Source: a phage. Taken from it: a DNA stretch of 64,000 nt. The stretch's first letter is position 1, and every line of letters begins with the position of its first letter. This document shows positions 44,123 through 44,940 of this stretch, in pieces. The stretch lies in sequence record PX930852.1, one strand, 5' to 3'. The notes beneath the pieces were generated by a model. That model ran no database searches. It worked only from the letters and a program-made list of their open reading frames with translations, and had not been told where the DNA came from. The position numbers and the translations under genes are program-made.

Positions 44123-44149
44123 TTGCTGTAAACGGTCTTCTGTAAATTT
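44123..44149. repeat. short dispersed repeat TGCTGTAAACGGTCTTCTGTAAATTTG (copy 1)
   Basis: identical 27-mer at 44671-44697; diverged copies at about 44207 and 44836. Confidence 0.6.
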
Positions 44150-44290
44150 GTTGAGCCAGACCAAGTTTTAAATTTTCAAAATTAAATTGGCTTGAAATTT
44201 CATACGTTCTTGCTGTATTTGGTCTTCTGCTCCTTTAAAGGATACTCGTAAGAACCCTTTAAGGGAGGGGCTAAATAGCCCTCTCAAAAT

Positions 44291-44368
44291 TGGCGGTTAC
44301 GAAGGGATTTGAACCCTCATCATCTCCCGTGACAGGGGAGTATTTTAACCAAATTAAACTACATAACC
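44291..44368 (-). tRNA. tRNA-Asp (anticodon GTC)
   Basis: T-arm aaggg/atttgaa/ccctc; anticodon arm ctccc-gtgacag-gggag. Confidence 0.75.
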
Positions 44369-44373
44369 TTTAT

Positions 44374-44461
44374 TGGTGTGCCGTGTAGGAGTCGAACCTA
44401 CCGAGTCTCAATGACAAGGGATTTACAGTCCCCACCGCTACCATCTACGGGATAACGACAC
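44374..44461 (-). tRNA. tRNA-Tyr (anticodon GTA), type II
   Basis: T-arm gtagg/agtcgaa/cctac; anticodon loop tttacag; 15-nt variable arm. Confidence 0.7.
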
Positions 44462-44530
44462 ATTTAATTTCTATTCAGGCTAAGGACTTGCACCTTACAA
44501 ATCGGTGAGCAATCGCTTCTCTCCTAAATT

Positions 44531-44607
44531 TGGCGGTTAGTCAGGGATTCGAACCCTGTGCCATTCGCTTAACAGGCGACCGCACATACCTTATGTGCTT
44601 CCTAACC
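44531..44607 (-). tRNA. tRNA-Asn (anticodon GTT)
   Basis: T-arm caggg/attcgaa/ccctg; anticodon loop ttaacag; D-arm gcac..gtgc. Confidence 0.7.
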
Positions 44608-44670
44608 ATGTTTAGTGTTACCAGACCGTATCTTTCAATTTTTTTTTTCCGCTAAAAATTTAATAAATAT

Positions 44671-44697
44671 TGCTGTAAACGGTCTTCTGTAAATTTG
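44671..44697. repeat. short dispersed repeat TGCTGTAAACGGTCTTCTGTAAATTTG (copy 2)
   Basis: exact match to 44123-44149, immediately 3-prime (minus sense) of tRNA-Met. Confidence 0.6.
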
Positions 44698-44771
44698 GAG
44701 GCGGGTGCAGGAGTCGAACCTGCCGATACCATGCTAATGAGACATGTGAGACGCCCTTTCTCTATACCCGC
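44695..44771 (-). tRNA. tRNA-Met (anticodon CAT), second copy; possible initiator or Ile2-type
   Basis: T-arm gcagg/agtcgaa/cctgc; anticodon arm catgc-taatgag-acatg; position 1-72 mismatch. Confidence 0.55.
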
Positions 44772-44862
44772 AATTCTTAATGACCAGACCAAATCTCTTC
44801 TTTGTCCGATTTACCTTCAGATGAATAAGATTAAGTTTGCTGCAATTGGTCTTCTGTCAAAA

Positions 44863-44940
44863 CTGGCGTTCCAGAAGGGATTTGAACCCTCAGATATCCA
44901 CTTTGAAAGAGTGGTGACTTTACCATTTTGTCTACTGGAA
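44863..44940 (-). tRNA. tRNA-Glu (anticodon TTC)
   Basis: T-arm aaggg/atttgaa/ccctc; anticodon arm ccact-ttgaaag-agtgg; perfect acceptor. Confidence 0.75.

Follow-up and report, generated by a model that had tools for sequence, protein, structure and literature searches.

The window analysed here, i.e., the whole stretch of 64,000 nucleotides (nt) of sequence record PX930852.1, derives from a Felixounavirus (Felix O1-like phage), whose array of transfer RNA (tRNA) genes holds four unannotated RNA elements of 75–138 nt on the minus strand, in the order E4, E3, E1, E2. These are discrete, structured RNA genes with a covarying terminal helix, hereafter termed the handle, and directly upstream of them lies a gene for a Ro60-fold protein. 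On balance, E1–E4 are probably Y-RNA-like partners of this divergent protein, which they would bind, and would be released by tRNA processing. The genetic linkage between handle and gene is found across phages of very different hosts.

The array region is 96–97% identical to that of Escherichia phage Alf5, LF82P phages and Salmonella phages. According to ARAGORN, it comprises 25 tRNAs at 39799–45025, every one on the minus strand, so that the repeats from which the elements were recognised sit downstream (3′) of tRNAs. Read on the transcribed minus strand, the repeat is CAGAAGACCnnnUnCAGCAA and is present in four copies. The initial annotation had reported an exact 27-mer at 44123–44149 and 44671–44697; the repeat is real, the coordinates were off by one, and the exact common string is the 28-nt TTGCTGTAAACGGTCTTCTGTAAATTTG at 44123–44150 and 44670–44697, which occurs nowhere else in the window. 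The trailing GG in its title holds for the second copy only, and the diverged copies that it placed near 44207 and 44836 are indeed present, at 44210–44232 and 44837–44859. The minus-strand 20-nt pattern CAGAAGACCNNNNNCAGCAA is matched without mismatch at four sites (44123, 44210, 44670 and 44837), the remaining matches in the 64 kb all have three mismatches, and a total of at least seven matches was reached in none of 100 shuffles. What had been missed is a complementary partner, nnGGUCUGG, located 45–125 nt downstream of every copy on the minus strand.

Repeat and partner form a fold that is common to all four regions, composed of a 4-bp outer helix, an AGA/G internal loop, a 7-bp inner helix and an unpaired NUN-CAGCAA (all positions on the minus strand). 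In E4 (79 nt; 44781–44859), the outer helix UGAC (44859–44856):GUCA (44784–44781) is followed by the internal loop with AGA (44855–44853) opposite G 44785, the inner helix AGACCAA (44852–44846):UUGGUCU (44792–44786) and the unpaired UUG-CAGCAA (44845–44837), enclosing a variable interior of 44 nt. E3 (75 nt; 44618–44692) has the outer helix UUAC:GUAA, AGA opposite G in the internal loop, the inner helix AGACCGU (44685–44679):ACGGUCU (44629–44623), the unpaired UUA-CAGCAA (44678–44670) and an A/U-rich interior. E1 (80 nt; 44153–44232) is built from the outer helix GAGC:GCUC, the same internal loop, the inner helix AGACCAA (44225–44219):UUGGUCU (44164–44158) and the unpaired AUA-CAGCAA (44218–44210), and is preceded by a hairpin and no tRNA. 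In E2 (138 nt; 44008–44145), the outer helix UUAC:GUAA, the AGA/G loop and the inner helix AGACCGU (44138–44132):ACGGUCU (44019–44013), with CAGCAA at 44128–44123, close a permuted tRNA-like domain. As the initial annotation had it, two of the copies run into encoded CCA ends: E4 begins 4 nt past the CCA of tRNA-Glu (UUC; 44864–44941, minus strand) and E3 begins 3 nt past that of a tRNA-Met-like gene (CAU; 44696–44772, minus strand, ARAGORN). From the end of E4 to the next tRNA there are 8 nt, and from the end of E3 to tRNA-Asn 10 nt; neither E1 nor E2 has an adjoining tRNA 3′ end.

Among these paralogues, both the outer helix (UGAC:GUCA, UUAC:GUAA, GAGC:GCUC) and the inner helix (AGACCAA:UUGGUCU, AGACCGU:ACGGUCU) covary. 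E2 and E3 are identical over 28 nt on the 5′ side and 12 nt on the 3′ side, and the interiors of E1–E4 are mutually unrelated. The handle thus comprises a 7-bp helix with an AGR start and a YCU-G end, together with the unpaired NUW-CAGCAA on its 5′ side; the AGA/G internal loop and the 4-bp outer helix are seen in Felixounaviruses. A terminal stem with an internal loop and a conserved motif is the arrangement of Y RNAs in the broad sense, the sequence of the motif being new. No Rfam 15 family matches the elements; scans of the array and the E1/E2 region at E ≤ 10 returned tRNAs and chance matches only, and no ribozyme, YrlA or known small RNA. A kink-turn was considered for the AGA/G loop and rejected, as tandem G-A pairs are absent. 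The elements are neither terminators nor promoters: no terminator-like site falls on E1–E4, E3 holds one weak promoter-like match (9/12), and the total counts for the region are no higher than in shuffles.

The gene directly upstream of the array, on the same strand (45190–46605, minus), encodes a protein of 471 amino acids, and the elements lie 340–1190 nt downstream of it, which corresponds to the same-strand proximity known of Y RNA genes. Pfam assigns DUF2828 and DUF7788, the latter being a von Willebrand factor A (vWA) domain with the DxSxS motif of a MIDAS (metal ion-dependent adhesion site). No match to TROVE or to the sequence of a solved Ro60 was obtained, with Pfam giving DUF2828/DUF7788 only and both phmmer and a profile search of PDB sequences remaining empty. 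The AlphaFold2 model, computed from a 30-sequence alignment (predicted local distance difference test score 86.8, predicted template modelling (TM) score 0.87), depicts a HEAT-repeat ring and a C-terminal vWA domain with a MIDAS, whose residues D279, S281, S283, T349 and D381 (DxSxS...T...D) do not vary within the family. In Foldseek, the first 12 PDB structures matched to this model are all Ro60/Rsr structures, aligned over the full length (E 1e-8 to 1e-6, TM 0.47–0.65), namely those of Xenopus, human, Deinococcus (Rsr) and Thermus phage phiLo, with vWA domains ranking behind them. Since sequence searches gave nothing, the Ro60 identity is visible by fold comparison only, and it is in its predicted fold that the protein is a Ro60.

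Relatives of this protein are widespread, with about 700 phage genomes in INPHARED having a tblastn match to it. It is identical at 462 of 471 positions (98%) to gp130 of phage Bas63, which was reported to be structurally Ro60-like and to counter the Ppl defence (PhageMaP preprint, PMC11482910). The authors of that study speculate about a Y RNA identity of some annotated tRNA genes (PMC11482910). All four elements are also present, and likewise unannotated, in Bas63. In its genome (MZ501086, 82748–83022, equal to 2549–2823 of our locus L133; loci of our collection are given as L numbers), the open reading frames (ORFs) bas63_0137 and bas63_0138 run opposite to the tRNA strand and overlap E1/E2 and a long hairpin RNA. 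These “hypothetical proteins” are probably spurious ORF calls over non-coding RNA (ncRNA) genes; the main text of the PhageMaP study contains no data on g137/g138, the ORFs overlapping E1 and E2.

The elements are conserved in other phages by compensatory change. Citrobacter phage Moogle keeps all four, with single changes that stay paired as G-U (AGGCCAA, AGACUGU), and loci L004 and L006 keep the outer pairing by a double change (UUGC:GCAA). In Yersinia phage P778 (protein identity 53%), three elements are interspersed with tRNAs downstream of the gene; their helices are doubly compensated (GGACUGU:ACAGUCC, GGAUUC:GAAUCC, GGACUC:GAGUCC), and the last one encloses a T arm. Listeria phage A511 has three tandem copies upstream of gp57, directly beside the DUF2828 gene, and Campylobacter phage CP8 has two copies between the tRNA cluster and the DUF2828 gene. 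In Mycobacterium phage Kingsolomon, three copies directly follow the DUF2828 gene, annotated there as “Ro-like RNA binding protein”, and end in a terminator-like hairpin. The tandem copies of A511 and Kingsolomon have no tRNA between them. Altogether, a handle of the form A-AGRNNNN-NUW-CNGCAA ... NNNNYCU-G is located beside same-strand DUF2828 genes in phages of Yersinia, Listeria, Campylobacter and Mycobacterium as well as dozens of phages from metagenomes. No element is present in a T5-like tRNA array.

The linkage was quantified in a sample of 80 IMG/VR loci encoding relatives at 39–48% protein identity. The seed AGRNNNNNTWC[ACT]GCAA, in which pairing plays no part, occurs 108 times on the gene strand versus twice on the other strand (83 loci), and for 94 of the 108 the gene is no more than 1.6 kb away. 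Of these 94 near-gene seeds, 83 have a perfect 7-bp partner at a distance of at most 200 nt, versus 17% with the downstream sequence shuffled, and in 79 of the 83 a G follows directly after the partner. From position frequencies, the core reads A-AGR-N-U-NN-N-U-W-C-A/C/U-G-C-A-A ... (A-rich) NN-A-N-Y-C-U-G. In an alignment of 30 sequences (A2), the inner helix is 95.7% paired and six of its seven pairs change on both sides, counts that are partly circular because partners were chosen by complementarity, so that the seed test is the independent one. The covariation score of A2 is 0.733 versus 0.216 in shuffles (none of 500 reaches the observed score), and at most 0.19 if the partner is slid.

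A covariance model (R1) was built from an alignment of short elements, with E4, E3 and E1 in its seed and E2 not. The three seed members score 48.3 (E4), 54.7 (E3) and 43.7 bits (E1), and E2 scores 20.1 bits (E 0.09) despite its 103-nt interior and its absence from the seed. Over the whole window, unfiltered, E1–E4 are the top four matches, the next one (17.9 bits) ranking narrowly below E2. Across 0.93 Mb of loci, R1 yields 51 matches at E ≤ 0.01, each of the 51 on the gene strand, and at least 11 of the matches start about 20–60 nt after the stop codon of the gene.

In the reverse direction, IMG/VR was scanned with a 17-base handle pattern and no use of the protein. Of the 42 loci retrieved, 33 have a helix partner. 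A DUF2828 gene is contained in the examined stretch at 14 of these 33, always on the same strand, and at none of the nine partner-less loci. The remaining elements that were checked (16/16) all lie inside arrays of tRNA or transfer-messenger RNA (tmRNA) genes on the tRNA strand, frequently 1–4 nt past the CCA, several of them to an array. For one such gene-less array, a DUF2828 gene was found on the same contig, with the array 6–6.7 kb downstream of it; for metagenomic elements without a nearby gene, no close reference genome was found. In one metagenomic phage lineage (L090 1220–1600, L114 3495–3875, L125 1221–1601 and related loci), a tmRNA heads a 22-tRNA array, its 3′ end is followed 2–3 nt later by a handle element, another copy comes after tRNA-Pro, and there is no DUF2828 gene within about 11–13 kb on either side. 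The family has thus conserved its position just past a tRNA CCA, and the DUF2828 gene itself tends to be located near tRNAs. Because the location directly 3′ of a tRNA is conserved in many phages, the ends of the elements are, judged from their positions, very probably set by tRNA processing.

Under the constant handle, interiors of several classes are found. That of E2 is a tRNA-like module (44035–44110, minus strand; minimum free energy (MFE) fold z −2.3) with a partial Rfam tRNA match on its T arm. It consists of a V stem-loop (about 44110–44087), the T arm GAAGG-UUCGAUU-CCUUC (44086–44070), an acceptor-like 7-bp stem closed by a tetraloop (ACUCGGC-AGAU-GUCGAGU, 44069–44052) and the D arm GUGU-AAUGGUA-GCAC (44049–44035), and corresponds to a circularly permuted tRNA in which the handle replaces the anticodon stem. 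The order V, T arm, closed acceptor stem, D arm (V-T-AS-D) is the layout of the bacterial YrlA Y RNAs (PMC4201824). E2 has this domain order, and its homologues fold likewise. In the middle Kingsolomon element, the interior matches the Rfam YrlA model with 37.9 bits (E 2.9e-5), under the gathering score. Whether E2 might itself be a genuine circularly permuted tRNA gene, one that needs circularisation, was considered and rejected, since it lacks an anticodon arm and since non-tRNA interiors are enclosed by this handle as well.

The YrlA-like permuted mimic is found in E2 of the window, Moogle, L018, L010, L020, L035 and Kingsolomon, and a non-permuted mimic with the handle in place of the acceptor stem in L064. 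Other interiors are short and A/U-rich, often with extra AAGCAA repeats, and at least two further conserved classes exist in T4-like metagenomic phages. The two mimic topologies under one handle can be seen in L064 (5750–5861), L018 (4755–4885) and L086 (4016–4157), the permuted one with T arm, closed acceptor stem and D arm, the non-permuted one with D arm, anticodon arm and T arm. The short elements of L016, L033, L030, L066 and L077 contain one to three extra AAGCAA/UAGCAA, which resemble the CAGCAA of the handle; these repeated motifs hint at multivalent binding of one factor. Y RNAs are designed alike, with exchangeable modules on a constant handle.

The closest known counterparts are the YrlA/YrlB RNAs with Rsr (Chen et al. 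2014, PMC4201824; RF02553). As in that system, small RNA paralogues lie beside a same-strand Ro60-fold gene, a stem forms between the 5′ and 3′ ends and is followed by a conserved, purine-rich unpaired motif, and one paralogue carries a V-T-AS-D tRNA mimic with a loop-closed acceptor stem. The handle, however, reads AGR.../CAGCAA, as opposed to the GNCGAAN0-1G of YrlA/YrlB; that motif is absent near the 5′ end, where NUW-CAGCAA is found instead. Furthermore, the protein of the window is a DUF2828/DUF7788 protein that is not recognisable as TROVE by sequence, and its RNAs are embedded in a tRNA array. The RNAs of the window are therefore Y-RNA-like in layout and context, and depart from YrlA in model score and in the GNCGAA motif. 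A second counterpart is Ro60 of Thermus phage phiLo with Yrl1/Yrl2 (PMC12135203), again a Ro60-fold protein of a phage with at least two small RNAs adjoining its gene, each with a terminal stem and an internal loop bearing the recognition motif; an anti-defence role via the host polynucleotide phosphorylase has been proposed in that work (PMC12135203). In contrast to the window, phiLo possesses a canonical TROVE-type Ro60 and a CGAA motif, with binding documented by electrophoretic mobility shift assay and cryo-electron microscopy, whereas binding in the window is a prediction, the RNAs lie among tRNAs and the motif differs. Further parallels are mascRNA (MALAT1), the tRNA-microRNA units of MHV68 and the stable RNAs of the T4 tRNA cluster, in which a non-tRNA RNA abuts a tRNA and its ends are set by RNase P and tRNA 3′-end enzymes. 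These are not known to share a motif with the handle or to be linked to a Ro60-like gene, and for the window such processing is suggested by position.

We infer a mechanism of four steps for the phage RNAs. They would be transcribed together with the tRNA array and would be excised by maturation of the flanking tRNAs, i.e., by 3′-end processing of the tRNA in front and by RNase P at the tRNA behind. The handle would then serve as docking site of the Ro60-fold protein encoded upstream, which would make the RNAs functional Y RNA analogues. Finally, the variable interiors may act as effector modules, with that of E2, a tRNA mimic in the manner of YrlA, possibly tethering enzymes that bind tRNA or serving as their decoy. 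Two sigma-70-like promoter matches between the Ro-like gene and tRNA-Pro (45171–45143 and 45081–45052, minus strand), recognised by consensus only in a region with no more promoter-like matches than shuffles, are possibly the starts of the transcript containing tRNAs and elements.

Several observations weigh against a partnership of E1–E4 with the Ro60-fold protein. The handle differs from every known Ro60-binding motif, these being GGUCCGA in animals and GNCGAAN0-1G or CGAA in bacteria and phage phiLo, and E2 has no match to the YrlA family RF02553 (gathering score 69 bits) at E ≤ 10. Besides the partial circularity of the A2 counts, the outer helix is lineage-specific and only 60% paired overall. 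The DUF2828-family gene of Aeh1 has no element within 2.5 kb, and about half of the true-looking elements of the reverse scan have no DUF2828 gene within the examined stretch; as the 16 gene-less elements that were checked all lie in tRNA arrays, part of the linkage between RNA and gene could run through the arrays. Finally, gp130 alone, either plasmid-borne or inserted in T7, counters Ppl (PMC11482910), so that phage RNAs are not needed for the Ppl phenotype.

Four rival explanations have been weighed, each of which fails on at least one of the points tested. The first, which we regard as improbable, holds that the elements are structured spacers of the tRNA array that guide or insulate nuclease cleavage of the polycistronic precursor, with no specific tie to the Ro60-like protein. 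It draws on the start of two window copies 3–4 nt after a tRNA CCA and on the 16 of 16 checked gene-less metagenomic elements in tRNA/tmRNA arrays; the initial annotation had considered that the repeats could be tRNA trailers or processing signals. The repeat, however, supplies the 5′ strand of a closing helix that covaries, together with a conserved unpaired CAGCAA, and it belongs to four discrete structured RNAs, of which E1 and E2 (two of the four) have no adjoining tRNA 3′ end. Both the trailer and the spacer reading also have against them the tandem copies beside the gene in A511 and Kingsolomon, with no intervening tRNA, and the T5-like array without any element. At no fewer than 11 loci, moreover, an element follows the stop codon of the gene within 20–60 nt, and a spacer would need neither an invariant unpaired CAGCAA nor an interior that mimics a tRNA.

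A second explanation, the elements being cis-acting operators on the DUF2828 mRNA (e.g., for autoregulation by the protein) instead of free-standing RNAs, appears quite unlikely to us. At many loci, one to four same-strand copies do occur 50–500 nt before the start codon or 20–60 nt after the stop codon, and the copies of A511 are located between a promoter-like site and the gene. In the window, however, the elements begin 340 nt after the stop codon, past two promoter-like sites and two tRNAs, and other copies lie in tRNA arrays 3.7–6.7 kb from the gene; elaborate interiors such as tRNA mimics would be unnecessary for an operator.

Self-cleaving ribozymes that free tRNA 3′ ends, as proposed for the theta ribozymes, which resemble those of hepatitis delta virus (HDV), would fit the location immediately 3′ of tRNAs, and theta/HDV-like ribozymes are indeed short structured elements immediately downstream of phage tRNA genes. 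For the elements of the window we consider this very unlikely. No Rfam 15 ribozyme family, including the HDV-like, hammerhead, twister, hatchet and pistol ribozymes, was matched at E ≤ 10; a terminal helix surrounds an interior that is variable, A/U-rich and in many cases unstructured, and no more than about 20 nt are conserved; and many copies have no preceding tRNA. As the 3′ strand of the helix lies at the 3′ end of the element, the nested double pseudoknot of HDV-like ribozymes is impossible. That the repeats are neutral duplication footprints or a small mobile repeat is scarcely credible: the identity of E2 and E3 on both sides and the paralogy of the copies do mean that duplication occurred, as had been suspected, but a merely neutral footprint is incompatible with compensatory changes in both helices among paralogues and phages that share only 29–53% protein identity, with the strict orientation of all 51 R1 matches along the gene, and with the lack of terminal inverted repeats or target duplications.

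Beyond the four elements, the region holds further features, all on the minus strand. Directly after E2 lies a fifth structured RNA (43866–44008) of about 143 nt, with a closing stem of some 28 bp (MFE −48.3 kcal/mol, z −6.2) and without the AGR/CAGCAA handle. Its stem is kept between Felixounavirus and Moogle via four compensatory pairs, the interior having diverged, and it could be an RNase III substrate. A family of hairpins with a UUACGA-type loop (AAGGnUUCUUACGAGnnUCCUU) is present at 40883–40907, 43387–43411 and 44235–44259, one of them just upstream of E1, and Yersinia phage P778 has a similar hairpin with a U run (L001, about 9725–9750); within the array, such hairpins may have a stabilising role or resemble terminators.

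The tRNA-Met-like gene at 44696–44772 is borderline, with an Rfam tRNA score of 28.5 bits versus a gathering score of 29. It is atypical in having either a 1:72 mismatch or an extra U ahead of the CCA, and could be an initiator-like or non-canonical tRNA. ARAGORN missed a tRNA-like gene at 43300–43378 (Rfam tRNA 31.7 bits) with the anticodon loop CUUCUAA, an aberrant D arm and an acceptor G3:U70, whose counterpart is annotated as tRNA-Arg in Moogle and Bas63 and as tRNA-OTHER in other relatives, as well as a weak tRNA-Sec-like match (23 bits) at 43077–43151. Just upstream of the Ro-like gene, a 123-amino-acid DUF5681 protein is encoded (46687–47058), syntenic in Bas63 (bas63_0129), Moogle and P778, which may be a functional partner of the Ro-like protein.

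At a larger scale, and with slightly better than even confidence, we propose that these elements constitute an undescribed, widespread class of phage ncRNAs. They would be modular, with an AGR-helix/CAGCAA handle and two independent kinds of tRNA mimic, would be made via tRNA processing, and would form ribonucleoprotein particles with DUF2828 Ro60-fold proteins, including the proven anti-defence protein gp130 of Bas63. This would amount to a Y-RNA system that hundreds of phages, with Gram-negative, Gram-positive or actinobacterial hosts, conceal in their tRNA arrays. In the literature searched on DUF2828, Felixounavirus ncRNAs and phage Ro60/Y RNA, three studies are relevant (PMC11482910, PMC4201824, PMC12135203), none of which describes these elements.

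It is customary to regard phage tRNA arrays as tRNA genes and junk spacers, whereas the spacers here contain a conserved family of RNAs without an entry in Rfam 15, and in Bas63 two of its members are covered by what are probably spurious small ORFs on the opposite strand. For this RNA family, a motif and a covariance model now exist. The elements are concrete candidate partners for the orphan DUF2828 protein family, one member of which counters Ppl, and they direct the search for Y RNAs to the inter-tRNA elements rather than to the annotated tRNA genes suggested by the PhageMaP authors. The system is of real interest because it is widespread, concealed within tRNA arrays and coupled to an anti-defence protein, and it has a bearing on how Ro60-Y RNA systems diversified and repeatedly recruited tRNA mimics.

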